64,000 nucleotides of DNA from Sulfolobales archaeon (GCA_026419835.1 JAOAKQ010000004.1:42388-106387), one strand, 5' to 3'; shown: positions 9,471 to 60,158, counted from the stretch's first letter. Notes: generated by a model not told the origin, from the letters alone. A program made the numbers and translations.

Positions 9471-9491
9471 CTAGGCACTTCCTCCGGTTCC

Positions 9492-10187: not shown

Positions 10188-10255
10188 ACGCTCACCGTTA
10201 AATATCTAACTCTTAGGTATATAAACTTTCTGTTAGCACTCGGAAACCGAATCGC

Positions 10256-14537: not shown

Positions 14538-14545
14538 GTCGGTAC

Positions 14546-16897: not shown

Positions 16898-17930
16898 GCA
16901 CTTCTTAGACCACGACCAAGTGGAAGATCTCGATAGGCGAATCTACGTAGTCGTTGGAAATACCCACCCACCGAACTCAGTCATAGCCTACGTTAAGTAC
17001 GTACCGACCGAACGCAGTACTCTCTGGTGCCGCGGCTCGGTATGCTACGAGAGGGTAATCAGAAGATACGGAGTGGACAGTGTCTTGAGCGTAGCTAAGA
17101 CGCTCCAGGAGGAAGTGTACGAACCATCTCTCGGTGTGTCGGTCCCCGTAGTTAAGCTGAAGGACGTGGCGGCCGTCTACAGACCCCGGGAGAGGTTTGA
17201 GGAGATACTGAGAAGGCCGGCTGATCGGGTGGAGTTGGATGTGCTGATAGCGTTCGATAGAGTGAGAGCGAGTTCCGGAGTGCCTTCGTGGAGAGTAGGT
17301 ATCAGCGGGTCTATAGCTATCGGCATACACAACCCCCTGGTATCGGACGTAGATCTGGTGATATACGGATGCAGAGAAGCGCTAGACGTAGTAGAGTCGG
17401 TGCGCAACTCATTTGATAAAGTACCGGACGAGGTGGAAGCGGTTAGACTAGCCGGAATGTCTAGAACGTACGGACTCCCAATACAAGTAATTCGCTCTAT
17501 TTCAGCTCCATACAAGAGACTCTACATGCGAGACAGGAAGAGGGAAGTAAATTTGATGTTCTCCAGCGACAGACCGGGAAGGTACTGTGAGAGCGTTCTA
17601 GTTCCAGTAGCTCTCGCAGAAGCGGATGTCGTAATCAACTCAGCCGACTGCCACTCCCTGTTCTACCCTGGAGTATCGAGCGTAGATAGAGTGGTAGACC
17701 TAAAGATCTTTAAAATCATTCGGGACGACTACGTGAACTCACTGAAGCGGTCCAAACTAGCTAAGATAGTAACGTACGAATCTCTATACTCCTACCCCCT
17801 CTACAGAGGAGGGGAAATTAGAGTAAGAGGAGTTGTGAGTGTTGAAAAACCTTCTGAAGACCTCGTAATGACTGTCGGAACTAGAGAAGTAGATAGCTAC
17901 GCTATACCGAAAAAACTATCTTCTAGCTAA
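16875..17930 (+). CDS. predicted nucleotidyltransferase (Pol-beta fold); start may be the GTG at 16920
   Basis: GISGSIAIGIHNPLVSDVDLVIYG fits the GS-x(n)-DxD minimal nucleotidyltransferase signature. The rest is unassigned. Confidence 0.5.
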   Translation: MISSKPTEHFLDHDQVEDLDRRIYVVVGNTHPPNSVIAYVKYVPTERSTLWCRGSVCYERVIRRYGVDSVLSVAKTLQEEVYEPSLGVSVPVVKLKDVAAVYRPRERFEEILRRPADRVELDVLIAFDRVRASSGVPSWRVGISGSIAIGIHNPLVSDVDLVIYGCREALDVVESVRNSFDKVPDEVEAVRLAGMSRTYGLPIQVIRSISAPYKRLYMRDRKREVNLMFSSDRPGRYCESVLVPVALAEADVVINSADCHSLFYPGVSSVDRVVDLKIFKIIRDDYVNSLKRSKLAKIVTYESLYSYPLYRGGEIRVRGVVSVEKPSEDLVMTVGTREVDSYAIPKKLSSS

Positions 17931-20900
17931 ACTCCACGCGGATGCGACTAAAGAGATTAACGACATAGCTAGAGCGATAAGAGATGTTAGGTGAACCGAA
18001 TCTAGTTTCGTCAATTCCTCAGATATCTTACTGAAGGACCTCTCAAAAGTCCTGCTGATATCCTCAATCGACGAGTCGACCCTACCTAATTCTCTACTAA
18101 CTTCATCGACTTGACCTCTCACACTAGAAAGCACTCTATCGAGGTCCGCTACCAGTAGGTTAACTCTCGCAGTGCTTTCAGATAGTTCTCTGTACGATCT
18201 CCTAATCTCACCTATCTCTCTATCAAATCTCGCTAACCACGATTCCAAGTTCATAGCTTTTATTCTCGCAAGCTCGCCTTCAGCTAACGTCATTCTGTTT
18301 CCTAGCTCGACGAGCGCCTTACTATGGTCTGCGGTCTGCGTGCTAACTCTCACTATATCTTCAGATAACTTGCTGAGAGACTTCTCAAAGGTCTTGCTGA
18401 GGTCCGCGATTTTCAAGTTAATCACTGCCGTCATTCTATTCTCTAGCTCAGTAAGTGCTTTACTGAGCTCCGCTATTCTCGTGCTGACTCTTACGAGATT
18501 GTTTTCAGTTGTTGTCATTCTGTTTTCCAGTTCGGTAAGTGCCTCGACGAGATCTGTGATTACTGAGTTCACTTTCGCGAGATTGTTTTCAGCTACTCCC
18601 ATTCTATTATCTAATTCAGCGAGTACTTTGCTGAGCTCCGCTACTATTGAATTGACTCTACTTAAACTACGGCCGTGCTCACTTACTACCGCTTCGAGTT
18701 TACTCAGTGCCTGACCAATTGTACCGACTTTCTCCTCTAGCGTATTAACGGTATCGTATAGAAGCCTTACTGAATCCGTGGGCACTACGTTGAGTGACAC
18801 CTGCTTCTTCGTGCAGTTACTCCCATAGCAAGTACCTACTTCAACAAATACAACTCCCCTAGGCGGATAGTCGGTTATGCTAATAGTGAATACTGTAAGT
18901 TTCCTATCTCTTGCCATGCCGATTACGCGGAGTACCGCACTATCCGGGTAGACCTGTCTTAGCGAGACGTTGTAGTCTTCGCTCGGGAGTAGTACCTCTA
19001 TAGTACTAACTTCTCCAACAACGTAGTGACTCTTTATGTTTACTACAACATCCGGTTCTCTTACAACCTCCTTCACTACTTCAATCTTTACTACCGCTGG
19101 AGGCTTAATGAGGACGGTCGTTGATGTGTATGTCAGACCGGAGTATGCGATGAATGGAAGTCTCTTCTCAACATCGACGAACGGCGCTATGAAGACATCG
19201 GACAAAGTTCCTCTAAGATTCGTATACCTAGTGAATAGGATGTTGCTTGCTATGTACGCCGTAACGGGGTCCGCTATCCCAAAACCAGTAACTACTACGT
19301 TAACGATCGATCCGGAGGTCATGACTGTGTTTAGGATCACGGCTGGAGATACGAAAACTAGACTCTCCCCATAGATTCTACCATCTCTCGAAACTAGCAT
19401 GAGGGTATTGCCACCTCCGTGAGTATACGGTAGAGTAACCCCTACACCTCCTGGAAGGTAGGGGCCGGAGTAGAGGTTTACGCCAGAAACGTAGATATCG
19501 ACAAGTCTTCCAGTGGGGATGTTAGCGGTTACCCTAACCTCTCCACCGGGTTGTGCCGTAGCTGGATGCACCGAGAGAAATGCGAGCTCGGTGCGGAGAT
19601 TCATAGATTTCGATATCGCTAAGTAAGATCTCACTCTCCCGTATCCCGCACCCGGATGGTCGAGAGCGACTGCCGTCGCGGTCAGTATGTCGTATACGGA
19701 TTCGACGAGTTTCACACCGCTAAGACCACTCTTCCTCAATTCGCTAGCGATAATTGCGGCGACACCAGCCACTAGAGGCGTAGCTGCGCTAGTACCACTA
19801 CCAATAGCTATGGCGTTCCCCGGATAAGCGCCGGGTACCAAAACCCCGGGAGCTACGATGTCCGGCTTTAAGTACCTCTTCGGATACGATCCCTTAAACG
19901 GCCACTCAGTTGGTGGCGATGGCCACTCTACTTCTTCGTAGCTACTGAAGTAGGCTACTCTATCGTCGAAGTCCGTTGCTCCAACACCTACGACACCCCA
20001 TACGTTGCCGGGGTTAGCACTACTGTGGGGACCCCCATTACCTACAGCGGCTACTACGACTATTCCCAGCTCCAGCAGTTTCTTAATAGCTGTTAGAAGT
20101 ACGTTGCTGTAGTCTCCTAGAGCTCCCAAGCTCATCGATACTACTGAAGGTCTCGGGGCATCTACTCGTCTTCCGTAACAATCGTACGGTTCGATAACCC
20201 ACTCAAGTCCCGCCAGTACTTGAGCGAAAGTTCCGTAACCACCCGGAATAACTGAAGCAACCATTAGCTTCGCGCTAGGTATTACACCGAAGACGCGTGT
20301 CGAGGTATCGCCACCAACAACTATACTGCTAACCCAGGTTCCGTGCCCATCAGCATCTTGCGGCTTAACGCATACGGGTCTACCCTTCCTATCGAACTCA
20401 ATCCAACCCCCGGGGTACCTAGGGTCGCTGGGGTCTACAGTCACTAACTTGCCCACTAGTAGGGGGTGGCTTATGTCGATACCGGTATCTAGAACGGCGA
20501 CGACGATATCTTTTCCCGACGTTCCTAGGTAGTTCCAAACGAGCTCAGCACCAATTCTACTAATAGCCCAAGACCACGCTTCAGTATACCTCCCACTACT
20601 ATTTCCAAGCTCGCTGAGACTACCTACAACTCTCAACTCCACATCAGCTTTCACTACTTCAACGTTCGGAGTGACTCTCCGTAGGCTTAGCCTTTCGATG
20701 GATCTAGGGCACTCGACTAGCGCGATATCAAAGTACTTGAAAACTCTCGTGACCCGACATCCTCTACCGACAAGCATATCTATAATTAGGGGGTCGGCTC
20801 CGTAGTCAACTAGGTACTCACCGATACCGCTACCTACCTGTGAGGCCACCACTAGCTGAGCCGTAGGAAGTGCTAGGACTAGGACTACGAGCAGAACTCG

Positions 20901-20936
20901 CCTAGATATCCCCAACCTCAATATATCACTCCTCAT
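17916..20936 (-). CDS. subtilisin-like serine protease (S8) with coiled-coil stalk and C-terminal membrane anchor
   Basis: Signal peptide; catalytic triad contexts VAVLDTGID / DGHGTWVSS / GSGTSAATPLVAG; about 250 aa of heptad-rich C-terminus with ELENRM repeats; terminal TM helix LIALAMSLISLVASAW. Confidence 0.9.
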   Translation of the reverse strand: MRSDILRLGISRRVLLVVLVLALPTAQLVVASQVGSGIGEYLVDYGADPLIIDMLVGRGCRVTRVFKYFDIALVECPRSIERLSLRRVTPNVEVVKADVELRVVGSLSELGNSSGRYTEAWSWAISRIGAELVWNYLGTSGKDIVVAVLDTGIDISHPLLVGKLVTVDPSDPRYPGGWIEFDRKGRPVCVKPQDADGHGTWVSSIVVGGDTSTRVFGVIPSAKLMVASVIPGGYGTFAQVLAGLEWVIEPYDCYGRRVDAPRPSVVSMSLGALGDYSNVLLTAIKKLLELGIVVVAAVGNGGPHSSANPGNVWGVVGVGATDFDDRVAYFSSYEEVEWPSPPTEWPFKGSYPKRYLKPDIVAPGVLVPGAYPGNAIAIGSGTSAATPLVAGVAAIIASELRKSGLSGVKLVESVYDILTATAVALDHPGAGYGRVRSYLAISKSMNLRTELAFLSVHPATAQPGGEVRVTANIPTGRLVDIYVSGVNLYSGPYLPGGVGVTLPYTHGGGNTLMLVSRDGRIYGESLVFVSPAVILNTVMTSGSIVNVVVTGFGIADPVTAYIASNILFTRYTNLRGTLSDVFIAPFVDVEKRLPFIAYSGLTYTSTTVLIKPPAVVKIEVVKEVVREPDVVVNIKSHYVVGEVSTIEVLLPSEDYNVSLRQVYPDSAVLRVIGMARDRKLTVFTISITDYPPRGVVFVEVGTCYGSNCTKKQVSLNVVPTDSVRLLYDTVNTLEEKVGTIGQALSKLEAVVSEHGRSLSRVNSIVAELSKVLAELDNRMGVAENNLAKVNSVITDLVEALTELENRMTTTENNLVRVSTRIAELSKALTELENRMTAVINLKIADLSKTFEKSLSKLSEDIVRVSTQTADHSKALVELGNRMTLAEGELARIKAMNLESWLARFDREIGEIRRSYRELSESTARVNLLVADLDRVLSSVRGQVDEVSRELGRVDSSIEDISRTFERSFSKISEELTKLDSVHLTSLIALAMSLISLVASAWSLARR
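18432..18683 (-). repeat. three tandem 84-nt (28-aa) repeats encoding the coiled-coil stalk
   Basis: CATTCT (the NRM codons on the minus strand) recurs at 18432, 18516 and 18600. The units encode EL(D/E)NRM..ENNL..V....I..L..ALT. Confidence 0.7.
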
Positions 20937-21139: not shown

Positions 21140-23743
21140 CTAGGAGCGCTTTAAGAGCTTAACTAGTAAGCTGAGTGACGCAGCTATAGCTACTAGAGAT
21201 GCGAGGAGAGCTACGTAGGTCAGCGTGGTTAACCTGCGGATATCTTCTAGCGCTAGAGCGCTAGATTCCTCGAGCTCCGTCAGGGACTCCTCGAATTTCT
21301 CTACTCTATACCTGAGTTCAGCGCTGGTAGCTTCAAGCTTCTCGACTCTGGGGATTTGCCGCTCTACGAACGCCACTCTGCCGCTGAGACCGGCTACGGA
21401 CCTCTCCATATCTAAGATAGCTAGTCTAATGTTGCTTAAGTTGCGAACCAAAGTGCTCACTACGGCGTTTAACTTGCTCACCTCGAGCTCGACCCTACCT
21501 ACTCTCTCTCGCTCACTAGCTAGGGAGGTTCTTAGGTCTTCAATGAGCTTCTCCACGTTCTTGAGCGAGTCTGCGAGTGGTTTTAGGGGGTCTACTAAGG
21601 CTATGTGAAGAGGTTCAATTCCTCTCACGCACCGATCTCTAAGACAGGCAGATACCTCTACGAAAACTACCCCGTGGGGTGGGTAGCTGGTTATGTTTAT
21701 CGTGAATACTGCGAGGTTTCTATAGAGAGATATGTTGAGTACCTTCAGCACCACCTGCTCGGGGTATACCTGTCTTAGAGATACACTGTAGCCTTCCTGA
21801 GGTAGCAGAACCCTTACAGTACCTACCTGCCCAACTACGTAGTAATCTTCAACACCAGCTCTCAGAGCGGGCTCCGGCTCCCTAACGGTTTCCACTCTAG
21901 TTACCGGTGGGCTCACCAAGACCGAGGTAGTTAGGTACACACCGGGCATCGAGTAGTCTTCAGCAACTACTTGAATAGTTCTCGGAGTGGTTACGTACGG
22001 AGCTATGATCTTCGTTCTTAAAGTACCTCTGAGGTTAGCCCCATCTATTAGTAGAGTATTGATCGCGTAAACCACCACGGTATCGCCCGGGCCTAGACCC
22101 GAGATAACTAAGTCATACATCTCTCCGGAGGTTAGGTTTCTATCCAGAGTAATTGCGGGGTCCACAGAGACCAGTGCTTCTCCGTAGGTTCTTCCATCGC
22201 TAGACACCACTACAACGATGTTTCCACCTATGTGGGTGTAGGGTACCTTAAGAGAGATGCCGGCAGGGTGGTACGTTCCGGAGTACACCCTCACACCGGA
22301 GATGTAGATCTCGACAGGAGCTCCAGCTTGAACGCCGGCCGTAATTCTGACACTACCTCCAGGGACTGTCTTAGCGGGCACCGTAGACACGTAGACAGAC
22401 TTCACAGCTGTATCCATAGCTGTGGAAACGGCTAGGTACGACCTAATCCTACCAAAACCAGAACCCGGCTGGTCTAGTTTAGCGGCGGTTCTCGTAAGGA
22501 CGTCGTATACTGCCTCAACGAGTCTAGCTCCACTTAGACCGGTTCTAGAGAGCTCCCTCGAGACCATCGCTGCGACGCCAGCTACTACGGGTGCGGAAGC
22601 ACTAGTACCGCTACCAATAGCTAGGAGGCCTCCCGGAAACGCACCAACAACTCTAACTCCCGGAGCGACTATGTCGGGTTTCGAGTACCTACTCGGGTAG
22701 TGCCCTTTGAAGGGCCATCTAGGCGGCGGTGATGGCCACTCTACTTCTTCGTAGCTACTGAAGTAGGCTACTCTATCGTCGAAGTCCGTTGCTCCAACAC
22801 CTACGACACCCCATACGTTGCCGGGGTTAGCACTACTGTGGGGACCCCCATTACCTACAGCGGCTACAACTACGATACCCGCTTGTATCAGCTTCTCTAC
22901 GGCCGGTAGGAAGATGTTGCTGTAGTTTCCTAGAGCTCCCAAGCTCATGGAGACTACTGCAGGTGTTGGAGTGATTAGATACCTCTTGTAGCAGTCGTAG
23001 GGTCTTAGAACCCACTCTAGGCCGGCGAGTACTTGAGCGAAAGTTCCGTAACCACCCGGTAGAACGCTCGCGACCATCAACATCGCTTCGGGCACTACAC
23101 CGAAGATATACGCTGAGGTATCTCCACCCGCAATTATACTGCTAACCCAGGTTCCGTGCCCATCAGTATCTCTAGGATTCGTACACACGGGCCTACCCTT
23201 CCTATCGAACTCAATCCAGCCACCGGGGTACCTAGGGTCGTTGGGGTCCGCAGTGATCAGCTTACCGAAGAGGAGGGGGTGATCCGGGTCTATACCGGTA
23301 TCTAGAACCGCTACGACCACGCCCCTACCGGACGTTTTGAGATACCTCCAGGTTATGTCAGCACCAACTCTACTCACAGCCCAAGACCACAGCGTAACGT
23401 ACTCGTACTCACCGCTCTGACTTTCAAACTCTCTCAGACTACCGAGAACTCTGAGCTCAGTACCGGCTTTCGCTACCTCAAGGTTCGGTACTGCGAGATT
23501 TCCTAGCTTACCTCCAGCGGATCTGGGGCACTCAACCAGCGCTATACCGAAGATATCGAAGACTCTCACTACGCGGCATCCGTAACCTAGCGCCCGCTCT
23601 AGTGCGAGAGATTCTTCTCCGTAGTTAACCAGGTACTCACTCAACCCGGTACTCGAGTTCGTGAATGCGCTTACTACCTGAACTAGTGGAAGAACTGCGA
23701 GCACGACTATGAGTAGCGATATCTTAAGTACGGAGGACTTCAT
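21140..23743 (-). CDS. subtilisin-like serine protease (S8) paralog with coiled-coil tail and C-terminal membrane anchor
   Basis: VAVLDTGID / DGHGTWVSS / GSGTSASAPVVAG. It has the same domain order as 17916..20936, with a shorter heptad tail and a terminal TM helix. Confidence 0.9.
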   Translation of the reverse strand: MKSSVLKISLLIVVLAVLPLVQVVSAFTNSSTGLSEYLVNYGEESLALERALGYGCRVVRVFDIFGIALVECPRSAGGKLGNLAVPNLEVAKAGTELRVLGSLREFESQSGEYEYVTLWSWAVSRVGADITWRYLKTSGRGVVVAVLDTGIDPDHPLLFGKLITADPNDPRYPGGWIEFDRKGRPVCTNPRDTDGHGTWVSSIIAGGDTSAYIFGVVPEAMLMVASVLPGGYGTFAQVLAGLEWVLRPYDCYKRYLITPTPAVVSMSLGALGNYSNIFLPAVEKLIQAGIVVVAAVGNGGPHSSANPGNVWGVVGVGATDFDDRVAYFSSYEEVEWPSPPPRWPFKGHYPSRYSKPDIVAPGVRVVGAFPGGLLAIGSGTSASAPVVAGVAAMVSRELSRTGLSGARLVEAVYDVLTRTAAKLDQPGSGFGRIRSYLAVSTAMDTAVKSVYVSTVPAKTVPGGSVRITAGVQAGAPVEIYISGVRVYSGTYHPAGISLKVPYTHIGGNIVVVVSSDGRTYGEALVSVDPAITLDRNLTSGEMYDLVISGLGPGDTVVVYAINTLLIDGANLRGTLRTKIIAPYVTTPRTIQVVAEDYSMPGVYLTTSVLVSPPVTRVETVREPEPALRAGVEDYYVVGQVGTVRVLLPQEGYSVSLRQVYPEQVVLKVLNISLYRNLAVFTINITSYPPHGVVFVEVSACLRDRCVRGIEPLHIALVDPLKPLADSLKNVEKLIEDLRTSLASERERVGRVELEVSKLNAVVSTLVRNLSNIRLAILDMERSVAGLSGRVAFVERQIPRVEKLEATSAELRYRVEKFEESLTELEESSALALEDIRRLTTLTYVALLASLVAIAASLSLLVKLLKRS

Positions 23744-23919: not shown

Positions 23920-24162
23920 GTGGAGGAGGAGGTCTACTACGAGCTTTATGGAGAGCACATATCTCTAGGAGAGCTAGCTGTATCGACAGCTATATCAACG
24001 GTCTTCGCCATGCTGTTCTTCCACATAGCTCCGCAGATCGCTCAGCTCACCGGAGTGCAGCCGGGAGGGCTCTCGATAACCCTAGGTGCTATTGGTGCTA
24101 CCGTAGGCTTCGCCATATCATCGCTCATCACTAGAGTTAAGAGAGTTGTTGCTGAGGTGTAG
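23920..24162 (+). CDS. small membrane protein (two hydrophobic helices)
   Basis: 80-aa ORF overlapping the start of the TctA-like gene; possibly a small transporter subunit. Confidence 0.35.
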   Translation: MEEEVYYELYGEHISLGELAVSTAISTVFAMLFFHIAPQIAQLTGVQPGGLSITLGAIGATVGFAISSLITRVKRVVAEV

Positions 24163-25540
24163 AGCTTTGGACCCGATAACGCTAGTACTAGTACTCGCTC
24201 TCTCAGCTCTCTCGACCATACTCTACATATTCATAGGGATCCTCCCGGGGACCGATGAAACAGCTACGATGGCACCTATAGCACTCACACTTCTACTAGC
24301 TGGTGTAGACCCTCTCCTAGTTCTAGCTTGGTTCATGGCTAGCATAGCTGCGTTCAAGATGGCTGACAGTATTCCAGTAGCCCTAGCTGGTATTCCAGGC
24401 GGTGTTATGGCGGTTCCTCAAGTTCCGGACGCTCTGGTAGCTAAGGAGCGAGGTCTAGCCGATACTATACTGAGAAAGGGTATAGCTGCTAGCGTGGTAG
24501 GTCAGGTAGTAGCGCTAGCTGTAACACTATCTCTCTCCTACTACATAATGCCCGCTGGTGAGTGGTTGAGAACTGCGGACGTAGTTCTCGGTGTGAGAGT
24601 AGCTAGGTGGTTCTGGCTAGTTCTGGCGGGACTCATAGTGCTAGCACTTACATCGAGAAGTAAGTTCGTAGCACTAGTCTCGATCCCCTCTCTAGCACTA
24701 CTTATCCAGGGCTTGAGGAGCGTCTACGGGAAACCTATATTCATCAGCCTCTTCCTAGGGATAACCATAGGGCCTATGATATTTGAACTACTCTCGATGC
24801 TCCACAGAGACTTGAGGCAGGCATTCACTCGGAGAGGTATGAAGGAAGTTAAGTTGGTAAAGATCGGTAGGATTAGTCTCAACCCGGTTAAGATACTTAG
24901 TAAGGATGAGCTAGCTCACAGCACTCTGTGGTCTGCCGTAACCTCCGTACTGGCAACGGTGATGTCCCCGGTGGGGCTGACCATACTGATCGGGGACCTA
25001 CTTAGAGAAGGAAGTAGAGATAGAACTAGGGGGGCCGTACTCGCGTATACTGTTAGAGACGCAATTAAGAACGCAACGTACGTTGGCGGCACTCTCGTTC
25101 CACTACTCGTAATAGGAGTTCCAACGGGTCCTATGTCCGCCGGACCGGCAGGACCGTTCTTCCAGAAGTTGGAATCTCTCGGAATGACGCCCCGAGACTA
25201 CATAGTCAAGAACTACGATTACGTAACTATAGCGGCAGCGCTTCTACTAGCTACAGGAATATCCTTCCTCATAGCCTACCCCATCCTAGTTAAGTACTCG
25301 AGGAAGATTACTCTAGCTGTATTCAGGAGGATCCCGGCTGAAGCTCTCTACGGTCTCTTCATAGCTATAGTCCTCATGCTCTCGTACTACGACGCCAGAG
25401 TTCCGGGGATCTTCGGAACTCTAGTAGTGAGCCTGATCTCGGGAGCTCTCTGGAAGCTCGGAGTATCTCTCGGAGTTCTCTTCATGACCTTGGTAGCCGC
25501 TCCAACGCTGGTTAGCTTGCTATCGGCACTACCACTCTAA
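24146..25540 (+). CDS. TctA-family (DUF112) permease
   Basis: Polytopic membrane protein. GILPGTDETATMAPIAL, LAGIPGGVMAV and LVIGVPTGPMSAGP resemble the duplicated TctA motifs G.LPG.G / LNVPG / LGVPGSG. Confidence 0.55.
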   Translation: MLLRCRALDPITLVLVLALSALSTILYIFIGILPGTDETATMAPIALTLLLAGVDPLLVLAWFMASIAAFKMADSIPVALAGIPGGVMAVPQVPDALVAKERGLADTILRKGIAASVVGQVVALAVTLSLSYYIMPAGEWLRTADVVLGVRVARWFWLVLAGLIVLALTSRSKFVALVSIPSLALLIQGLRSVYGKPIFISLFLGITIGPMIFELLSMLHRDLRQAFTRRGMKEVKLVKIGRISLNPVKILSKDELAHSTLWSAVTSVLATVMSPVGLTILIGDLLREGSRDRTRGAVLAYTVRDAIKNATYVGGTLVPLLVIGVPTGPMSAGPAGPFFQKLESLGMTPRDYIVKNYDYVTIAAALLLATGISFLIAYPILVKYSRKITLAVFRRIPAEALYGLFIAIVLMLSYYDARVPGIFGTLVVSLISGALWKLGVSLGVLFMTLVAAPTLVSLLSALPL

Positions 25541-25946: not shown

Positions 25947-26051
25947 ACCAGTTGAGTAGTTCTGAAGACGTAAAATATGCTGCGCGATCTAGCCCCAAAT
26001 ACTGGTGATTTAGGCAGTTAATAGAAAGAAATTTATATACGAATCCTTAAA

Positions 26052-27365
26052 GTGACCTGGGTTACTACTGTGGAGAAGAAGACCACTAGGGGTCTCCCAG
26101 ATCTAGGTGAAATCATCGACTACGTAACTAAGAGTAAACTCCTCAGCGAACCACACGTTAGAAAACTCTGGGAGCTATCTAGTGATGCGAGTTTATTTGA
26201 GAAATCCCCTGATTATCTTGCTAAGCTGCGGCGAGACCTTCTTAGAGAGTCTCTCGAGTTCTTCGCTAGGAGAAGCCACTTCTACGCTAACCTACTCGAA
26301 AAACTGGAGGTAGACCCTGGGGCCGCTGAAGCAGATGACTTAGTTAAACTAGCAGTACCGTCCGACCTACTTAGAGGTGAGGGATATAGAAGACTGCTAA
26401 TTGATGATGTTCTCGAAGAGCCGGGGTACGTCTTCTCTTCGAGTGGAACTACTTCTTCAACACCTGTGAGAGTCTACAGAACCTACGTAGAGCTCGCAAT
26501 GATGGTTAAAGCTAACACGTTACTATTTGAGTACGTCTACGGGAGAAGACTAGAGGAGGGAAGGGGTGTAGCTCTCTTCCTAGCCGCTAGAGAACTGAGG
26601 GACCAGCTTAACTTCGTCGCGTTCGTAGACCTCGCACTCCAGGGTAAGAAAATACCCATAATCTACGGGATGGACCTAGTTAGAGAAGCTGGGGCCGGAG
26701 GTTCTCAGTGGACTAAGCTAGTCCCCAATAAGAAGAGAATACTTGGGTTTCTGAGAAGTAGAGAGGAGCCTAAGCTGTTCTTCACAGCCCCCGCCGGAGT
26801 ATACTTCATGTCTAAGCGAATGCTCGAAATGAACTTCATTAGTAAACTAGCCTACAAGCTGATGAGTGGCGCTCCACCAATTGACTTAGGGCGTGGGGGA
26901 GTTGTAGTAACTGGTGGAGGTTCGAAAGGTATGGACATACCCCCGTACGACGAGATCGTGAAGATCTCCAGCAAGGTGTTTAAGTCTAGAAATGAAAGAG
27001 GAGAGCTAGTGGACCCTTCGTTCATGGATGTTCTAGGTATGACTGAAACGCTGACCGCTTTGATAGATAGGCACGGGGTTATGAATAAGATTCCGCACCC
27101 ACTACAGGAGGTATTCCTAGTAGACCCCAAGACCTACAAACCAATTACAACACCGGGAAGAGACGGGATCTTAGGAATATTCGACCCGCTAGCCATTTCC
27201 TGGCTCGAGGTATTTCTCCCAGGAGATATAGTTAGGTTCTACGAGTCTAGCAGGTACTACGGTAGGGAGTTCGTGTACGTTAGAAGATTAACGAAGGAGG
27301 AGGGGTGGGACCTTCAGCGGGCTTGCGGAGGTACTATAGAGGAGATGATGAGGAGAGGTTCTTAG
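26052..27365 (+). CDS. LuxE-like acyl-protein synthetase / adenylate-forming enzyme
   Basis: YVFSSSGTTSSTP (adenylation P-loop-like motif), VVTGGGSKG (compare LuxE GGGWKK), LGMTET, and C-terminal RACGG (compare RGCS). Confidence 0.65.
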   Translation: MTWVTTVEKKTTRGLPDLGEIIDYVTKSKLLSEPHVRKLWELSSDASLFEKSPDYLAKLRRDLLRESLEFFARRSHFYANLLEKLEVDPGAAEADDLVKLAVPSDLLRGEGYRRLLIDDVLEEPGYVFSSSGTTSSTPVRVYRTYVELAMMVKANTLLFEYVYGRRLEEGRGVALFLAARELRDQLNFVAFVDLALQGKKIPIIYGMDLVREAGAGGSQWTKLVPNKKRILGFLRSREEPKLFFTAPAGVYFMSKRMLEMNFISKLAYKLMSGAPPIDLGRGGVVVTGGGSKGMDIPPYDEIVKISSKVFKSRNERGELVDPSFMDVLGMTETLTALIDRHGVMNKIPHPLQEVFLVDPKTYKPITTPGRDGILGIFDPLAISWLEVFLPGDIVRFYESSRYYGREFVYVRRLTKEEGWDLQRACGGTIEEMMRRGS

Positions 27366-27404
27366 GCAGCTGCTAGCCACGCTCAGTGTGTAGTAGGTGA
27401 CGTA

Positions 27405-28823
27405 ATGCCGGGGATCTCGGTTCCGGAGCCTGCGGAAGACTACCTCAGGAGAGTTCTTGAGAGCGGCTGGGACACCGTAGTGGAACTACTGAAAGTAGGA
27501 TTCGATAGGAGAGTTAGAGCTCTGGCTGAAGTAGGTAGGTTGTGGCGCAGCAAGCTACTATCCGGTGAGCTGAGGGACGTTGTCGAAGAGCTAGCTAAGC
27601 TAACGGGCTACAGTATCAAGAACGTGGAGCTAGACCTAGCTCTAGTACCGGAAGTACTAAGCGAGGAATCTCTTAGAAATCTCTTCAACTACGGCCTAGC
27701 GGGAGGTTGGAGAAGCATTGATTCACCAGTTGAAGTATCTGAAGGAGAGCTAGTCTGGAACGCGCCCGCCGGGTCTGTATTCATAATAGCGTCTGGAAAC
27801 AGCATAATACCGCCAGTTCTAGCGGCATCGACATCTTTTTTAGCGGGGAACCTGACTATTCTGAGACCTTCGCAGACGAACTTCGCTGCGGTTAAGAAGG
27901 TCTTCGACCTACTCTCCGAGGTTTCTTCTGGAAGTGCCTACGAAGTTGAAGCGATGAGCAAAGCTATCTACGTACTCTATATGAGTCACGATAGTCCAGC
28001 TCTCAGGTACATCCTCGAGGAAGCACCAGTGTCTGTAGTTAACTACTGGGGTGGGGAGCCGGGTAGAACCAGGGTTCTCTCTATGGCTATGAAGAATCCG
28101 CACAGACCTAGAGTACTCATCAACGGCCCTCTCACCGGGATGGTCTTGGTGGATGAAGAAAGCGCTAACTACGATACTGCGATTAAGCTAGCTAGGGATG
28201 TGGTTCTATACGATCAGCAGCTGTGCAGCTCCCCTACACTCGCCGTTTTAATAGGTTCTCGCAATTCTCTAGTGGTCTTCCTGAAGACGCTGAGCAGGGC
28301 TCTCGATGAAGTCGGAGATAAGTTCCCCGTAGAGCTGAGCGAGGGTTCTTTCTACAGACTACACAGTTTCAGGAAGTCTCTAGAGCTCGATGGCGTGGGC
28401 GTGGTCTACTCCAGGTCGGCGCGCAATCCGTGGACCGTAGTTGTGAGAAACCTCGGTGAACTAGAGCGAGCGCCACTGACTTGGAGTACCTACAGTAGGA
28501 GAGTTCTCGAAGTCATGAGCATCGAGAATCCGTCGGACCTCGGCAAGGTGCTGGAGCTGCAGACGAGGAGGCTAAGAAAGTCGGGAATTGACGGTATTCA
28601 AACCGTTTCCTACGCAGTCAGTAGGTACAGACTTGAGGAGATAGTGAAGACCCTCGCTAAGTTCAACGTGTACCGCGTAGTTCCTCTAGGTGAGTCGTTT
28701 CTGAGAACTCCAGCGGAACCTTACGACGGTGAGTTCATTCCGAAGTACTACACTCGCACGATCTATCTGAGAGTAGCGGAGGCTTTAGGTAGCTTAAGGC
28801 AGAGAGGTGTGTACCTACCTTGA
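27405..28823 (+). CDS. LuxC-like acyl-CoA/acyl-protein reductase (ALDH fold)
   Basis: IIASGNSIIPPVLAASTSFLAGNLTILRPS and YDQQLCSSPTLAV (catalytic Cys context typical of the LuxC family); 472 aa. Confidence 0.65.
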   Translation: MPGISVPEPAEDYLRRVLESGWDTVVELLKVGFDRRVRALAEVGRLWRSKLLSGELRDVVEELAKLTGYSIKNVELDLALVPEVLSEESLRNLFNYGLAGGWRSIDSPVEVSEGELVWNAPAGSVFIIASGNSIIPPVLAASTSFLAGNLTILRPSQTNFAAVKKVFDLLSEVSSGSAYEVEAMSKAIYVLYMSHDSPALRYILEEAPVSVVNYWGGEPGRTRVLSMAMKNPHRPRVLINGPLTGMVLVDEESANYDTAIKLARDVVLYDQQLCSSPTLAVLIGSRNSLVVFLKTLSRALDEVGDKFPVELSEGSFYRLHSFRKSLELDGVGVVYSRSARNPWTVVVRNLGELERAPLTWSTYSRRVLEVMSIENPSDLGKVLELQTRRLRKSGIDGIQTVSYAVSRYRLEEIVKTLAKFNVYRVVPLGESFLRTPAEPYDGEFIPKYYTRTIYLRVAEALGSLRQRGVYLP

Positions 28824-29821
28824 AGGTACTGGTAACCGGCGCTTCCGGGTTCCTCGGTTCCTACGTCGTTCGCTCTCTTCTAGAGAGAGGATACGATGTT
28901 GTTGGAACCTACAGAACCCCCGGAAAAGATAGGGTCCTCCTAGAGCTGGGTGTGAAAACCGCCGTCAGGATGGACTTACTGGACCCGCAGTCCGTTAGGC
29001 AGGCCGTTAGAGGTGTAGACGCCGTTATTCACCTAGCTGCCTACTACACGTTCGTGGGGAGGAAGGATATGTACCGCAAGGTAAACGTTGAAGGAACGAA
29101 GCTACTGGCTGAAGCGGCTTTAAAGTCCGGTGCCGGTAGGTTCATATACTGCAGCAGTACCGAAGCTATGGGCCCCGTCGATAATCCGCCGGCTGACGAA
29201 TCAACACCTCCCAATCCCCAGTTCGAGTACGGAAGGTCGAAGCTTGAGGCGGAGCGCGTGGTGGCCTCCATGGGGAGCGCCGGCTTGAAGTACACTATTA
29301 TCAGACCGAGCGGACTGTACGGTCCCGGGAACCTAGACGACATTTCGTACTGGTTTATAACGAGTTTTGCTAGGGGTGGGATATATTCGAAGTTCATGGT
29401 TGGTGGGGGCCTCAACCTAATACAGTTCGTTCACGCTAGAGATGCCGCTCGAGGATTTCTTCTAGCTCTCGAGAAGTCCGACGTGTCTACCGGTCAGACC
29501 TACATAGTATCTGAAGATAGAGCGTACACCTACGTTGAAGTCTACAGGATCCTCCGTGAGCTAATCGGTAGAGACCCGCCTAAGCACTCCATTCCGCCGT
29601 GGTTAGCGAAGACTCTGCTCACGTTCGCAGAGATCTACGATAGGCTTAGAGGAGGTGAGAACTTTCTGTACCGTAGGGTCGTGGTTGACGCAGTAACTAA
29701 GCATAGAGCCTACAGCATTAGGAAAGCTATGAGAGAACTCAACTACTACCCAACCTACGACCTAAGGTCGGGACTGCGAGAAACTATCGAGTGGTATAGG
29801 TCGATAGGTGAGATCCCGTAG
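28820..29821 (+). CDS. NAD(P)-dependent extended SDR (epimerase/dehydratase/aldehyde-reductase type)
   Basis: VLVTGASGFLGSYVV, CSSTEAMG, YGRSKLEAE (YxxxK). TTG start overlaps the upstream TGA (TTGA). Confidence 0.85.
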   Translation: MKVLVTGASGFLGSYVVRSLLERGYDVVGTYRTPGKDRVLLELGVKTAVRMDLLDPQSVRQAVRGVDAVIHLAAYYTFVGRKDMYRKVNVEGTKLLAEAALKSGAGRFIYCSSTEAMGPVDNPPADESTPPNPQFEYGRSKLEAERVVASMGSAGLKYTIIRPSGLYGPGNLDDISYWFITSFARGGIYSKFMVGGGLNLIQFVHARDAARGFLLALEKSDVSTGQTYIVSEDRAYTYVEVYRILRELIGRDPPKHSIPPWLAKTLLTFAEIYDRLRGGENFLYRRVVVDAVTKHRAYSIRKAMRELNYYPTYDLRSGLRETIEWYRSIGEIP

Positions 29822-30053
29822 GCATGTCCTCGAAGTCACGCTACTGCGTAGCCGGCGCCGAAGCTCTAACTCGAAAGTATAGCGGCTCTCGAATAGACCG
29901 CGAAGAAGGCGTGAGTGTCGGTGACTGTGCTTCGATAGTAGTGTGCCGTGCGTGCTTTACTCACTAAGCACGTATAAGTAGTTAGTACTTTCACTAAGTC
30001 GTAGGCGGAAGACTTATGTTTATTTCGTAGTTGACTAGTGTGTGGTGGACTGA

Positions 30054-31283
30054 TTGAGTGGCGGAAGTATCGGCGGGCTGAGGCGTAGGTCGAGTAGGCT
30101 TCGAAGTAGGCGCGGCTTGATTCTAGCTACGCTACTAGCTTCGTACAGCTTAGTGTACTTCCACAGAACTATGACGGGGGTTATGGAGGCTGAGATAGCC
30201 GCGATCTCCAGGCAGTACGGGTATAGCCCCGAGTTCTTTCTATCGGTACTCGCATCCGCCTACTTCTACGCGTACTCCCTCTCGCAGTTCGCCGTGGGGT
30301 CTCTCATAGACTACTACGGCATTAAGAGGGTCGGGTCGTTCCTCCTCCTTCTACTCGCCCTAGGAACTGCGCTCATAGTACCGCAAGACCCTATCGTCAT
30401 GGTTTTCGGGAGAGCTGTCATTGGGTTTACATCGGTTGCGGCGTTCCTATCCTACCAGAGGTCCCTATCTCTATACTTCAAACCTGAGGAACAGGCTAGA
30501 GCCACGGCACTAGCACTCGCCGCAGGTAGCTTTACAGCTATGGTAGCTACGTACCCTCTGAGGCAGGCTCTCGATGCGGTAGGTCTTAGCGGAACTGTGG
30601 TAGCTCTAACCGCTGTTACGCTAGCTATCGCAGTATCCGTATACCTAGCTTCAACGGATACTAGAGCCAGTGGAGATGTACGTGAGTACTTCGCGAAGAC
30701 CAGAGCGAACTTAAGGGACGTTCTGCTCGATAAGCACGGCTGGGGGGTGAGCATAGGCGCTCTAGCAACGTACGGAACTGGGCTATCCTTCCAGTCCTCC
30801 TGGGGCCAGATCCTCCTATCTAGAGCGTTCTGTATGGGTAGGGTTGAGGTAAGCCTATACCTACTCCTACTAGCGGCTACCTTCATGGCTACGTGTCCAG
30901 CGGCTGGTTACTTGAGTGACAGGGTTCTTAGAAAGAGAAAGCCTCTACTACTAGCCTCATCGATTTCCATGGCCTTCTCGTGGTCCCTACTGCTAGTTTC
31001 ATCGATCACCGCCAACCTAGCTCTACTGCTGATATCGCTTCTATCTCTCGGAATATCTCTGGGACCCCACATAGTCATATCTGTGATGATGAGGGAAGCT
31101 CACGGACCGGCTAGGGCAGCTACGTCAGTAGCCTTCATGAACACAGTGCTATTCCTCGGAGTAGCTGTACTCAACAGCACACTACCGCAGCTCGGATACT
31201 GCGAAGCTACCGGGATCAGCATAGCTTTAGCGGCCGCAGGGTCTGCCGCAGTATACTTCCTCACTAGGGAAACGTATTCGTAG
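30054..31283 (+). CDS. MFS transporter
   Basis: About 12 hydrophobic segments and a motif-A-like GSLIDYYGIKRVG. Confidence 0.6.
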   Translation: MSGGSIGGLRRRSSRLRSRRGLILATLLASYSLVYFHRTMTGVMEAEIAAISRQYGYSPEFFLSVLASAYFYAYSLSQFAVGSLIDYYGIKRVGSFLLLLLALGTALIVPQDPIVMVFGRAVIGFTSVAAFLSYQRSLSLYFKPEEQARATALALAAGSFTAMVATYPLRQALDAVGLSGTVVALTAVTLAIAVSVYLASTDTRASGDVREYFAKTRANLRDVLLDKHGWGVSIGALATYGTGLSFQSSWGQILLSRAFCMGRVEVSLYLLLLAATFMATCPAAGYLSDRVLRKRKPLLLASSISMAFSWSLLLVSSITANLALLLISLLSLGISLGPHIVISVMMREAHGPARAATSVAFMNTVLFLGVAVLNSTLPQLGYCEATGISIALAAAGSAAVYFLTRETYS

Positions 31284-31321: not shown

Positions 31322-32026
31322 TCACCTAGAGGACTCCTTAACGACTACCCTCCCACACCACTTCCAGTTAGCTGAAGATAGTAGTTCGTATACTCTCCTA
31401 ACGGCCTCAGCAACTCTAGCTCTATCAACACCTGGAACTCCGGCACCTAGAACGAAGACCTCGGTCGTGCTATCTCGAATAGCCGTTTCAACACAGTCTC
31501 TGTGTGGATATAGGTGCATGACCACTCCCCCACTATCTGCGAGAATAGGTACTCCTCTCGGTAGAACCTCACTCCCACCTCCTATTGGGTTGAACACCTC
31601 CCCTCCCCTACTAAGCGTTAGCGTGTACGGCGGTGACGACGCACTCATATCGTACAGACCTATTGGAACTCCGGTGGTGGCTGATGCTATGTTACCCGCA
31701 TCCACGACGGCGCTCACTCTAGGGAAGGAGTTCCTCAAGCACCTCCTAACGAGAGCTTCACTCGAAGGTCTGGTCTTAGTGGGGTCTATACCCATTCTCC
31801 AGAAGAAATCTCTGTATGCCCTGAAGACCGGGTCGTTCTTCACTGACTCGAGAGTGTAGCGGGACTTTACGTACTTCACCAACTCCTCGATCTCCTCCTC
31901 GAACTCAACTCTACGTATCTCCTCAGTCCAGATAGCCGTGTACGCTACGAAGACTCCTAGATGCGATAAGCTCCTATCCAAGTTCAGCAGGTTCTCTAGC
32001 TCGCCGCAGTACTTCAAGCCGCGCAC
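31322..32026 (-). CDS. B3/B4 tRNA-binding domain protein (PheT B3/B4-like)
   Basis: DPVFRAYRDFFWRMGIDPTKTRPSSEALVRR...VVDAGNIASATTGVPIGLYD. Confidence 0.7.
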   Translation of the reverse strand: MRGLKYCGELENLLNLDRSLSHLGVFVAYTAIWTEEIRRVEFEEEIEELVKYVKSRYTLESVKNDPVFRAYRDFFWRMGIDPTKTRPSSEALVRRCLRNSFPRVSAVVDAGNIASATTGVPIGLYDMSASSPPYTLTLSRGGEVFNPIGGGSEVLPRGVPILADSGGVVMHLYPHRDCVETAIRDSTTEVFVLGAGVPGVDRARVAEAVRRVYELLSSANWKWCGRVVVKESSR

Positions 32027-39733: not shown

Positions 39734-40600
39734 TTGGCGGATGCTATTGAGCGAGCCGCGGTGGAAGCTATTAGGAGAGCCGTTATATACCTACCTCCGG
39801 ACGTTAAGATGGCCTTGATCAAGGCGTATGAAAGAGAGGAGAATGACGTAGCTAGAGCTCAGCTTAAGTCCATACTAGACAATATAGAGCTAGCTGAAAA
39901 GATGGCGCGGCCGATGTGTCAGGATACCGGGATGATCACCTTCTACGTAGATGTAGGTTACGATTTCCCGGGTGCGCGGTACGTTAGAGATTCCCTCGTA
40001 AACTCCGCTAGGGTGGCGACACAGAGCGTTCCCCTAAGACCCAACAGCGTCCACCCCTTCAAAAACGTCAATACTGGAGATAACACGGGGAGGTACTCCC
40101 CTCAGATTCACTGGGAGTTGGTCCCCGGAGACAGCCTCAAGTTCACGGTAGTACCCAGAGGGGGTGGCTCAGAGTATCCGACAGCTCTACACATGGTGCC
40201 CCCTGGGAGAGGTCTCGACGTACTTAGGGAGGTGGTCCTCGAGTCCGTGCTTCGGGCGGGTGCTATGCCCTGTCCACCTACGATTGTTGGTGTAGGTGTT
40301 GGTGGAAGTGTTGAGACAGCGGTTTTTATCGCAAAGAAGGCAGCTGCACTGAGAAAGGTAGGTACGCTAAACGAGGATCCGGAGCTAGCGGTACTGGAGA
40401 GAGAGCTTACTGAGGCTATCAACGAGTTAGGTATAGGGGTAATGGGCCTTGGCGGGAAGACTACGGTTCTAGCCGTTCACATAGACTACGCTCACAGACA
40501 TCCAGCGACATACCCAGTGGCTGTAGTGTTTCAGTGCTGGGCCGCTAGACGCGCTACAGCTATAGTAGAGCCTGGTGGGGACTTCCAAATACTTCAGTAG
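39734..40600 (+). CDS. class I (Fe-S) fumarate hydratase, alpha subunit
   Basis: PMCQDTGM, VPRGGGSE, GVGVGGS. Confidence 0.9.
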   Translation: MADAIERAAVEAIRRAVIYLPPDVKMALIKAYEREENDVARAQLKSILDNIELAEKMARPMCQDTGMITFYVDVGYDFPGARYVRDSLVNSARVATQSVPLRPNSVHPFKNVNTGDNTGRYSPQIHWELVPGDSLKFTVVPRGGGSEYPTALHMVPPGRGLDVLREVVLESVLRAGAMPCPPTIVGVGVGGSVETAVFIAKKAAALRKVGTLNEDPELAVLERELTEAINELGIGVMGLGGKTTVLAVHIDYAHRHPATYPVAVVFQCWAARRATAIVEPGGDFQILQ

Positions 40601-40608
40601 GGTGGTCC

Positions 40609-41211
40609 ATGGCTGCGTACAATTTCAGAACCCCCCTGAGAGAAGAAGACGTGAGAACTCTAAGAGTTGGTGACATAATCTACCTAAGTGGAATTATCGT
40701 GACGGCTAGAGACGCAGCTCATAGAAGAATTGTTGAGTATCTGAGAGCTGGCAAGCCGCTGCCCGTAGATCTCAAGGGAGGCGCTATATACCACTGCGGA
40801 CCGGTCGTAGTAAGAAGGGGTGATGCGTGGAAAGTGCTCTCAGCTGGACCTACAACAAGTACTCGACTAGAACTATACGAACCTGAGGTAATAGAGAAAA
40901 CTGGCTTGAGGTTAATTGTAGGTAAGGGCGGGATGGGTCCTAAAACGGCTGAGGCGTGCTCTAAGTACGGAGCTATCTACGCGGTATATACGGGAGGGGC
41001 CGCCGTACTTGCCGCTCAAGCGGTTAGGGAGGTTGTTGGAGTAGAGTGGCTAGATCTCGGAATACCGGAAGCTCTGTGGATCCTCGAAGTAGAGAACTTC
41101 GGACCCTTAGTAGTTACTATAGATACGGCGGGAAGAAACTACATAGAGGAGGTAGTAAAGAAAGCTGAAGAGAAACTGAAGTCTCTTAAAGCATCTCTCA
41201 GTCGGCAGTAG
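40609..41211 (+). CDS. class I fumarate hydratase, beta subunit
   Basis: GIIVTARDAAHRR, YHCGP, GKGGMG. Confidence 0.9.
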   Translation: MAAYNFRTPLREEDVRTLRVGDIIYLSGIIVTARDAAHRRIVEYLRAGKPLPVDLKGGAIYHCGPVVVRRGDAWKVLSAGPTTSTRLELYEPEVIEKTGLRLIVGKGGMGPKTAEACSKYGAIYAVYTGGAAVLAAQAVREVVGVEWLDLGIPEALWILEVENFGPLVVTIDTAGRNYIEEVVKKAEEKLKSLKASLSRQ

Positions 41212-41425
41212 ACTACTTCAGTCTTTTTCTACTGATCCAGATGCGTATCAGAGTCCGCACTATTTGAGTTCTAAGCTCTAGTATGGACGGTCTACACTAG
41301 CCTAGACACACTAACTAGCGTAGAGTCATTCACACAGCACTTAACTGCTTGAGAGAACGAGCTGACGAGCTTCCCTAGGTTTTCAAAACTTCAATTAACC
41401 GTTTTTCACTTCTAGACAGTAAGTC

Positions 41426-42781: not shown

Positions 42782-42953
42782 AATGAGGCATAGGCCTATA
42801 TACTAGGTGCTTTTTCTCTACGCATGGACCCTCCTTCTACTACGCTCGGCGGTACTGCCTAGCTCGGGCTAGTCTCGGCCTTCTTTTAGATATCGGTGGT
42901 GGACGCCCTGATCGCTGATATACTCTCTTGAATATGACTATGCGGGTGGTTAC

Positions 42954-60097: not shown

Positions 60098-60158
60098 AGA
60101 AGTAAGTACGTATTACCTTAAAAGTACATAAACTATAGATAGCCACTGGGTTTGCGAG

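Follow-up and report, generated by a model that had tools for sequence, protein, structure and literature searches.

A conserved archaeal gene trio predicted to encode a LuxE/LuxC-type carboxylic acid reductase and an associated aldehyde reductase

Organisation of the locus

A 64,000-nucleotide (nt) stretch of the genome of a Sulfolobales archaeon (GCA_026419835.1 JAOAKQ010000004.1:42388-106387), the whole of which is referred to here as the window, carries three adjoining genes for a LuxE-like protein, a LuxC-type protein and a short-chain dehydrogenase/reductase (SDR) of the extended type, here called g1, g2 and g3 (Table 1). A first-pass annotation, made from the sequence alone, had proposed that they form a module reducing a carboxylic acid to an aldehyde and further to an alcohol, followed by a major facilitator superfamily (MFS) transporter gene. 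An open reading frame (ORF) listing returned the same four co-directional genes at the same coordinates, and direct reading of the sequence confirmed the junctions: a gap of 39 nt between g1 and g2, a TTGA overlap of g2 and g3 (28820-28823), and a spacer of 232 nt, with an AT-rich box of its own, between g3 and the MFS gene. The motifs quoted for the three proteins are all found at the expected residues, in g1 SSGTTS (130-135), GGGSKG (288-293) and RACGG (423-427), in g2 DQQLCSSP (270-277), in g3 GASGFLG and YGRSK.

Two GTG codons may serve as the start of g1. The public annotation of an identical protein (P0001, from a Sulfolobales archaeon metagenome-assembled genome, MAG) begins at GTG 26070 and gives 431 amino acids (aa). 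The TTTATATA box, a candidate TATA element, is located just 13-20 nt upstream of GTG 26052, and its spacing suits GTG 26070 better. For these two reasons GTG 26070 is the more likely start. The GGTGA box ahead of g2 would be consistent with translation of an internal gene of an operon. An Rfam scan of the locus detected no RNA element.

Pfam scans of the window ORFs of at least 150 aa revealed no LuxD, LuxAB, ketoacyl synthase or acyl carrier protein (ACP) domains, and no Bac_luciferase or Acyl_transf_2 domains (LuxA/LuxB, LuxD), in line with the earlier statement that luminescence and fatty-acid synthase genes are missing from the window. The latter two domains were not seen among the annotated recurrent neighbours of related loci either.

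Table 1. Features of the trio, its neighbours and other genes, with positions counted from the first letter of the window
Feature	Position	Strand	Remarks
g1	26052..27365	+	LuxE-like acyl-protein synthetase; 437 aa from GTG 26052, 431 aa from GTG 26070
g1 SSGT (residues 130-133)	26439..26450	+	ANL phosphate-binding motif; invariant in 40 family members
g1 TGGGSKG (residues 287-293)	26910..26930	+	K292 aligned with LuxE Lys238; K292 invariant
g1 R411/R412	27282..27287	+	Aligned with LuxE Arg354/Arg355; both invariant
g1 Cys425 (in QRACGG)	27324..27326	+	Predicted acyl-carrying cysteine, equivalent to LuxE Cys364
g2	27405..28823	+	LuxC-type acyl-thioester reductase, 472 aa
g2 YDQQLCSSP (residues 269-277)	28209..28235	+	Catalytic Cys274, the counterpart of LuxC Cys296
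g3	28820..29821	+	Extended SDR, 333 aa; predicted NADPH-dependent aldehyde reductase
TTTATATA box	26032..26039	+	Candidate archaeal TATA element for the operon, read in the sequence; putative promoter role
GGTGA box	27396..27400	+	Shine-Dalgarno-like; inside the g1-g2 gap, 4 nt before the g2 ATG
MFS transporter gene	30054..31283	+	Pfam MFS_1, 98 bits; neighbour, outside the conserved module
TctA-family organic-anion transporter subunit	24146..25540	+	Pfam TctA, 66 bits; lineage-specific neighbour upstream of the trio
Octamer TCACTAAG, two copies	29961..29968, 29991..29998		In the spacer that precedes the MFS gene, 30 nt apart
B3/B4-domain stand-alone protein	31322..32026	-	Convergent with the MFS gene
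C4-acid gene cluster	39734..44300	+	About 10 kb downstream of the trio
Peptidase_S8 protein, first	17916..20936	-	Subtilisin-type, 1006 aa
Peptidase_S8 protein, second	21140..23743	-	Subtilisin-type, 867 aa
NamZ-family protein	53193..54476	+	Exo-beta-N-acetylmuramidase domains, 187 and 143 bits
GH130 proteins	58979..62103	+	Mannoside phosphorylase family; three tandem paralogues

Assignment of the three proteins

The g2 protein matched the Pfam LuxC profile (PF05893) with 108.1 bits against a cut-off of 21, over profile positions 12-392 of 401, and by sequence it matched the LuxC chain of the solved LuxC-LuxE complex (7xc6_A) with an E-value (E) of 1.5e-9. The same chain was the top Foldseek match (E 6.9e-22, template modelling score, TM, 0.75) of its AlphaFold2 model, which has a predicted local distance difference test (pLDDT) score of 90.8. 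Ordinary aldehyde dehydrogenases (ALDHs) came next in the ranking, with E ~1e-17 to 2e-17 and TM 0.62-0.70, so the earlier assignment to LuxC rather than to ordinary ALDHs is upheld by the model. The LuxC-type cysteine context proposed at the same time is also conserved. YDQQLCSS of g2 aligned on YDQQACFS of 7xc6_A, placing Cys274 on the catalytic cysteine, and Y269, Q271, Q272, L273, C274, S276 and P277 are invariant in 35 sequences. Q271 and the stretch CSSPT (C274-T278) remain so when four bacterial relatives and one Theionarchaea-like relative are included in the alignment. We conclude that g2 is unambiguously of the LuxC type, but since it scored 50.7 bits against the NCBIfam LuxC equivalog NF052251, which has a cut-off of 750, g2 and the luminescence enzyme are not orthologous.

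An attempt to map the substrate cleft of LuxC onto g2 gave an alignment for the N-terminal helix alone, the C-terminal cleft element falling outside it. Within that helix Leu107 and Trp111 of LuxC correspond to the conserved Leu76 and Leu80 of g2, and Met114 to a variable position. Phe297, which directly follows the catalytic cysteine and is required for LuxC activity, is replaced in g2 by a conserved serine.

Several relatives of g2 are named 'aldehyde dehydrogenase family protein' by NCBI and some have a secondary Pfam Aldedh match, as would be expected if g2 were an ordinary ALDH and g3 an alcohol dehydrogenase in a catabolic route from alcohol to acid, with g1 activating the acid product. 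Such an oxidative direction appears very improbable. LuxC ranks above every ALDH for g2, the cofactor site of g3 is of the NADP type, and the invariant acyl-cysteine of g1 would have no role. Furthermore, the active site of LuxC-type enzymes retains the cysteine alone, without the residues by which ALDHs hydrolyse the thioester (PMC9157457), which argues against oxidation.

The sequence of g1 on its own gave no match in Pfam, NCBIfam or PDB, even at E = 10. The profile check that had been suggested for the pair turned out differently for its two members, PF05893 detecting g2 and the Pfam LuxE model PF04443 missing g1 entirely, with no match up to E 10 and the gathering threshold not reached. 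A precomputed PF04443 match was present in just four of the 120 listed g1 relatives. A profile built from 40 family members, however, had the LuxE chain 7xc6_E as its top match in PDB (E 2.7e-4), whereas PaaK was matched at E 0.27 and over the N-terminal 90 residues only. When the g1 family was compared by hhalign with a set of five verified PF04443 proteins, the two aligned end to end with a probability of 99.8 % and E 9.6e-28 over 348 columns, spanning g1 33-424 and LuxE 10-371.

Mutagenesis of LuxE has identified Lys238 (K238A is inactive), Arg354/Arg355 and the C-terminal Cys364 as functional residues (PMC9157457). All have invariant counterparts in g1 (Table 1), as judged from the 40-sequence family alignment and from alignments to 7xc6_E and PF04443 members. 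Cys425, 12 residues from the C-terminus, aligned by hhalign on the cysteine of the RGCA motif of the PF04443 proteins. It is retained in 76 of 81 sequences, the five exceptions being three copies truncated at contig ends, one with a frameshift and one in decay, and it is also retained in divergent archaeal and bacterial branches.

The AlphaFold2 model of g1 (pLDDT 88) has a PaaK/ANL-type fold, and the closest solved structures are PaaK-type CoA ligases and aryl-acid ligases (2y27, 4r1m, 6tm4), with TM ~0.6. The fold search did not separate LuxE from PaaK; 7xc6_E fell outside the top 50, probably since only 118 of its 373 residues are modelled. PaaK1 is itself superimposed on the LuxE model in the cryo-electron microscopy study of LuxC-LuxE (PMC9157457). 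Thus, for the choice between LuxE and PaaK raised by the first-pass annotation, the structural ranking points to PaaK-type proteins and the profiles favour LuxE. An assignment of g1 to PaaK by sequence model was rejected, there being no Pfam or NCBIfam match and merely the marginal profile match in PDB, while the fold is common to both.

These structural neighbours, together with the label 'phenylacetate-CoA ligase' given to g1 relatives by JGI and the finding that LuxC accepts acyl-CoA as a donor (PMC9157457), could be taken to mean that g1 is a PaaK-type ligase freeing acyl-CoA and g2 a reductase of free acyl-CoA, with no transfer of the acyl group from protein to protein. We regard this CoA-dependent route as quite unlikely. 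The C-terminal cysteine is invariant even in remote branches and lost only in truncated, frameshifted or decayed copies, the protein matched end to end by the g1 profile is LuxE and not PaaK, and neither a Pfam AMP-binding nor a PaaK C-terminal domain match was found in g1. A natural fusion of g1 to LuxC also speaks against it: the metagenomic protein P0225 (884 aa) joins a g1-like domain to a LuxC domain, with the cysteine tail at the junction.

An exhaustive profile search of 1.84 billion representative proteins with the g1 family gave only 75 matches at E <=1e-3. The archaeal family falls entirely into one of them, a 50 %-identity cluster, and the others are about ten divergent members of full length and fragments. 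Below these a score gap was followed by ordinary LuxE proteins at 35-50 bits. The narrow match set and this gap indicate that the g1 family is a sharply delimited sister of PF04443 that is unmodelled by current domain libraries. Apart from the JGI label its members are mostly annotated as 'hypothetical protein', and in UniRef a few are termed 'LuxE domain-containing'.

The g3 protein scored 164 bits for Pfam Epimerase, 107 for 3Beta_HSD and 73 for NAD_binding_4. In 65 orthologues G7/G10/G13, S112, Y137 and K141 are at least 95 % conserved and R32 is invariant, and no acidic residue follows the second strand. The protein is thus an intact extended SDR, and it belongs to the type preferring NADP(H), as an arginine without an acidic residue at this place is typical of NADP(H)-dependent SDRs. 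It has full-length similarity to the HpnA, OleD and 3-beta-HSD-type extended SDRs and shares their Rossmann motif and S/Y/K triad. The nearest NCBIfam models, HpnA (TIGR03466; 173 bits, cut-off 367.65), OleD (NF042422; 129 bits, cut-off 580) and SdmB, are nevertheless all far from being reached, and no hopanoid or olefin genes are found nearby. The nearest solved relative, 3wj7, is an uncharacterised protein described as a 'putative oxidoreductase'.

It is conceivable, though unlikely, that g3 is not an aldehyde reductase but resembles 3-beta-HSD, HpnA or a sugar-nucleotide epimerase/dehydratase also in function, acting elsewhere on the substrate in lipid or glycan tailoring, the aldehyde being the final product or handed on. 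This is in keeping with its best models and Pfam matches, with the location of bacterial luxC/luxE pairs in flagellin glycosylation islands (PMC7874193), with a UbiA prenyltransferase gene 3' of g3 in Methanomassiliicoccales, and with loci where g1 and g2 occur without g3. The scores far under all NCBIfam cut-offs count against such a role, as do the invariant Arg32, which suits a reductive NADPH enzyme, and a Zn-dependent alcohol dehydrogenase (Zn-ADH) found in the position of g3 in bacterial relatives. Moreover, genes for glycosyltransferases or sugar-nucleotide enzymes were not among the recurrent neighbours of the trio.

Conservation of the trio and the proposed reaction route

A scan for related loci, with one genome per species, gave 80 loci, all archaeal. 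About 30 belong to Methanomassiliicoccales, 12 are Nitrososphaeria-type, 10 are from Methanomethylicia, nine are Sulfolobales/Desulfurococcaceae-type, and Thermofilaceae and Odinarchaeia have three each. Archaeoglobales, Brockarchaeota, Bathyarchaeota and Methanofastidiosia contribute one each, and nine are from unclassified archaea, Thermoproteota, Crenarchaeota or Methanobacteriota. The host range is thus wider than Thermoprotei/Crenarchaeota, covering about ten lineages of archaea, to which a bacterial branch of divergent sequences is added.

The three genes are co-conserved. Directly downstream of g1, g2 was found in 70/80 loci, and g3 came next in 65/80, the misses being mostly contig ends. 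The arrangement is therefore not due to chance. Stop and start codons of the trio overlap or abut. Over the same genome pairs the median identity is 61 % for g1, 54 % for g3 and 43.5 % for g2, and the pairwise identities of the three proteins are correlated (r = 0.85-0.90).

The divergent bacterial branch of g1-like proteins is represented by Pseudonocardia sediminis and metagenomic contigs. Three loci of actinobacterial type have, after the g1-like gene, a LuxC-like gene encoding QQ(L/M)CSSPT and then a gene for a Zn-ADH in place of the SDR. This swap for an unrelated alcohol dehydrogenase is the best available evidence for an aldehyde-to-alcohol third step. An additional Zn-ADH gene follows g3 in one Methanomethylicia locus.

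Taken together, homology, conservation of catalytic residues, gene linkage, the natural fusion and the bacterial replacement of the third enzyme by an alcohol dehydrogenase make it likely that the trio is a single operon, in which a carboxylic acid reductase of the LuxE/LuxC type is coupled to an aldehyde reductase. With the reaction direction, the cofactors and the acyl hand-over between the proteins inferred, g1 would use ATP to convert a free carboxylic acid to an acyl-AMP and then transfer the acyl group to its own C-terminal Cys425. The flexible C-terminal tail of g1 would bring the acyl group to Cys274 of g2, which would reduce the thioester with NADPH to the free aldehyde, and g3 would reduce the aldehyde, again with NADPH, to a primary alcohol. 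The core of the first-pass annotation, namely a LuxE-like synthetase, a LuxC-like reductase and an aldehyde-reducing dehydrogenase in an acid-to-aldehyde-to-alcohol module, is supported by every test run.

Some observations weigh against this reading. The equivalog score of g2 is low, PF04443 does not recognise g1, the solved folds closest to g1 are PaaK-type CoA ligases, and the top family matches of g3 are HpnA, OleD and sugar epimerases/dehydratases, not named aldehyde reductases. In addition, g1 and g2 occur without g3 in L033 and L044, g1 is found alone within 10 kb in L005, L007 and L092, and the substrate clues from gene context conflict, so that no substrate is named here.

The lone g1 genes of L005 (9989-11278) and L007 (3129-4418), both on Sulfolobales/Zestosphaera-type MAGs, are intact and flanked by a glycoside-hydrolase-like gene and a DUF58/MoxR pair. 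The LuxC homologue P0138 may be located on the contig of L005, more than 10 kb from g1, as the longest contig listed for it has the same length (178,926 bp). The most decayed copy, in L077 (Ca. Methanomethylicus oleisabuli; g1 at 9977-11248), has 14 changes at invariant sites, including C425S, and looks like a decaying gene; g2 and g3 have been lost there, which, like the fusion, speaks for a coupling of the three genes. In L075 (g1 at 9989-11182) the C-terminus is frameshifted and a gap of 407 nt precedes g2. On a Theionarchaea-like metagenome contig (L086, 240-5064) a radical-SAM/SPASM gene runs 10 nt into the g1-like gene, and the LuxC-like gene is followed by a convergent arginase-family gene.

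A close known counterpart is LuxC-LuxE of Photobacterium phosphoreum (7xc6), which is also the top fold match of g2. Both systems combine an adenylating enzyme carrying a C-terminal acyl-cysteine with a single-cysteine reductase of the ALDH fold, and the critical residues of LuxE (Lys238, Arg354/355, Cys364) and LuxC (Cys296) are common to the two. The trio differs in that LuxD, LuxAB and fatty-acid synthase genes are not located nearby, in a g1 that is about 60 aa longer than LuxE and undetected by PF04443, in the low equivalog score of g2 and its serine in place of Phe297, and in a dedicated reductase gene. Its hosts are anaerobic archaea.

LuxC/LuxE homologues outside luminous bacteria are already known as annotations, for instance as pairs in the flagellin glycosylation islands of non-luminous Aeromonas (PMC7874193). 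Those pairs adjoin genes for ACP, a 3-oxoacyl-ACP reductase and glycosyltransferases (PMC7874193), whereas nothing of the kind recurs at the archaeal trio. Furthermore, the LuxE proteins of Aeromonas are ordinary members of PF04443, and g1 belongs to a separate family. PaaK-type and aryl-acid ligases share the ANL-type adenylating fold with g1, but the latter has a LuxE-type acyl-cysteine tail and a LuxC partner, and its profile similarity to PaaK is marginal and limited to the N-terminus.

The carboxylic acid reductase CAR and the alpha-aminoadipate reductase Lys2, built of adenylation, carrier and reductase domains, reduce acids to aldehydes with ATP and NADPH via an enzyme-bound thioester. 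This is the same net chemistry as proposed for the trio. Unlike in CAR and Lys2, no PP-binding (phosphopantetheine carrier) domain was found by Pfam in g1, g2 or g3; the thioester would be formed on protein cysteines, and the reductase has an ALDH fold instead of the SDR-type R domain.

To our knowledge, free carboxylic acids are rarely reduced to aldehydes in biology by an ATP-driven reaction, and we know of LuxC/LuxE biochemistry from luminous bacteria only. Here this machinery, with a predicted aldehyde reductase built in, recurs as a conserved unit across about ten anaerobic archaeal lineages, including methanogens (Methanomassiliicoccales, Methanomethylicia), Asgard archaea (Odinarchaeia) and hyperthermophiles. 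As far as we know, none of these hosts needs fatty aldehydes. The enzymology is familiar; what is new is a distinct, highly conserved LuxE-like family, a fixed three-gene architecture and an unexpected host range. With its substrate identified, the trio would extend archaeal metabolism by a pathway, and it is a potential source of thermostable, carrier-protein-free carboxylic acid reductases for biocatalysis. No publication on LuxC/LuxE in archaea, on archaeal fatty acid reductases or on this trio was found in the literature searched.

A further speculation, which we consider doubtful, is that the trio represents one dedicated, ancient archaeal pathway to a specific aldehyde or alcohol metabolite that is so far absent from the archaeal metabolic map. 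If so, the strong conservation of g1, with its median identity of 61 % across phyla and 93 invariant positions, would reflect one fixed common substrate. The linkage to UbiA in Methanomassiliicoccales would point to a reduced isoprenoid or fatty acid for membrane or prenylated compounds as one candidate product. The links to a ComB phosphatase and organic-anion transporters would point to a second one, a hydroxy-acid-derived diol or polyol.

Gene neighbourhood and other features of the window

The MFS transporter, which the first-pass annotation had placed after the trio, was rejected as a fourth component of the module since a homologue is present in just 2/80 related loci, the two closest relatives. 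Homologues of TctA likewise occur in 2/80 loci, and both genes, like the other neighbours in the window, are shared with these two closest relatives alone. Both transporters are thus lineage-specific neighbours and not module components. The MFS protein has weak similarity to the galactonate and phosphoglycerate transporter subfamilies. The repeated octamer TCACTAAG upstream of its gene may be a candidate regulator-binding site. The stand-alone B3/B4-domain protein encoded beyond it is kept only in the two closest relatives; the domain occurs in the beta subunit of phenylalanyl-tRNA synthetase.

A common fourth gene hinting at the substrate was sought among the neighbours of related loci, and no consistent picture emerged. 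A recurrent 'ABC ATPase' cluster was dropped, as its members, among them SufC of the window, proved to be ABC proteins unrelated to each other. The tightly linked extra genes vary by lineage, and include UbiA with radical SAM, a ComB-type phosphatase, glutaredoxin with a ferredoxin-thioredoxin reductase (FTR)-like protein, Zn-ADH, M20 peptidase, GrpB and biotin carboxylase.

In Methanomassiliicoccales a co-directional gene for a UbiA-family prenyltransferase is located 3' of g3 in 18 loci, and a radical-SAM gene is present in 14. The UbiA gene (motif NDYYDHKSG) begins 35-187 nt downstream of g3 and is followed by the convergent radical-SAM gene, as exemplified by L035 (5286-6239, +, and 6193-7149, -), L081 (13772-15696) and about 16 other Methanomassiliicoccales loci. 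GrpB is often encoded immediately upstream of g1 in the same order. In seven Nitrososphaeria or Brockarchaeota-type loci (L019, at 13776-14468, +; L018, L042, L047, L048, L050 and L069) a gene for a ComB-family 2-phosphosulfolactate phosphatase (PF04029, 186 bits) follows g3 after 21-80 nt, which hints at a link to a 2-hydroxy acid. The bacterial relatives have genes for malate synthase and glyoxalase next to them. The trio of a Methanosuratincola locus (L084) lies amid thiol-redox genes (9346-9881 and 13807-14666), with two thioredoxin-like genes upstream and, downstream, glutaredoxin and a ferredoxin-thioredoxin-reductase/rubredoxin fusion.

As evidence for a substrate, synteny confined to a single lineage is weak. 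The lipid-acting families nearest to g3, the UbiA/radical-SAM linkage and the two LuxC cleft residues that correspond to conserved leucines hint at a hydrophobic acid. The flanking TctA and MFS transporters, the ComB phosphatase, the bacterial malate synthase and glyoxalase, and the serine replacing the phenylalanine of LuxC hint at a small polar acid.

The C4-acid gene cluster further downstream in the window encodes the alpha and beta subunits of a class I fumarase, a malic enzyme and a Lyase_1/adenylosuccinate-lyase-type protein. Upstream of the trio are two very large Peptidase_S8 proteins encoded in tandem, the second of which combines a signal-like segment at the N-terminus with a long coiled-coil-like region and a hydrophobic anchor, both C-terminal. 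The window also holds the three GH130 genes and a NamZ-family gene, the latter unexpected in a murein-free archaeon.

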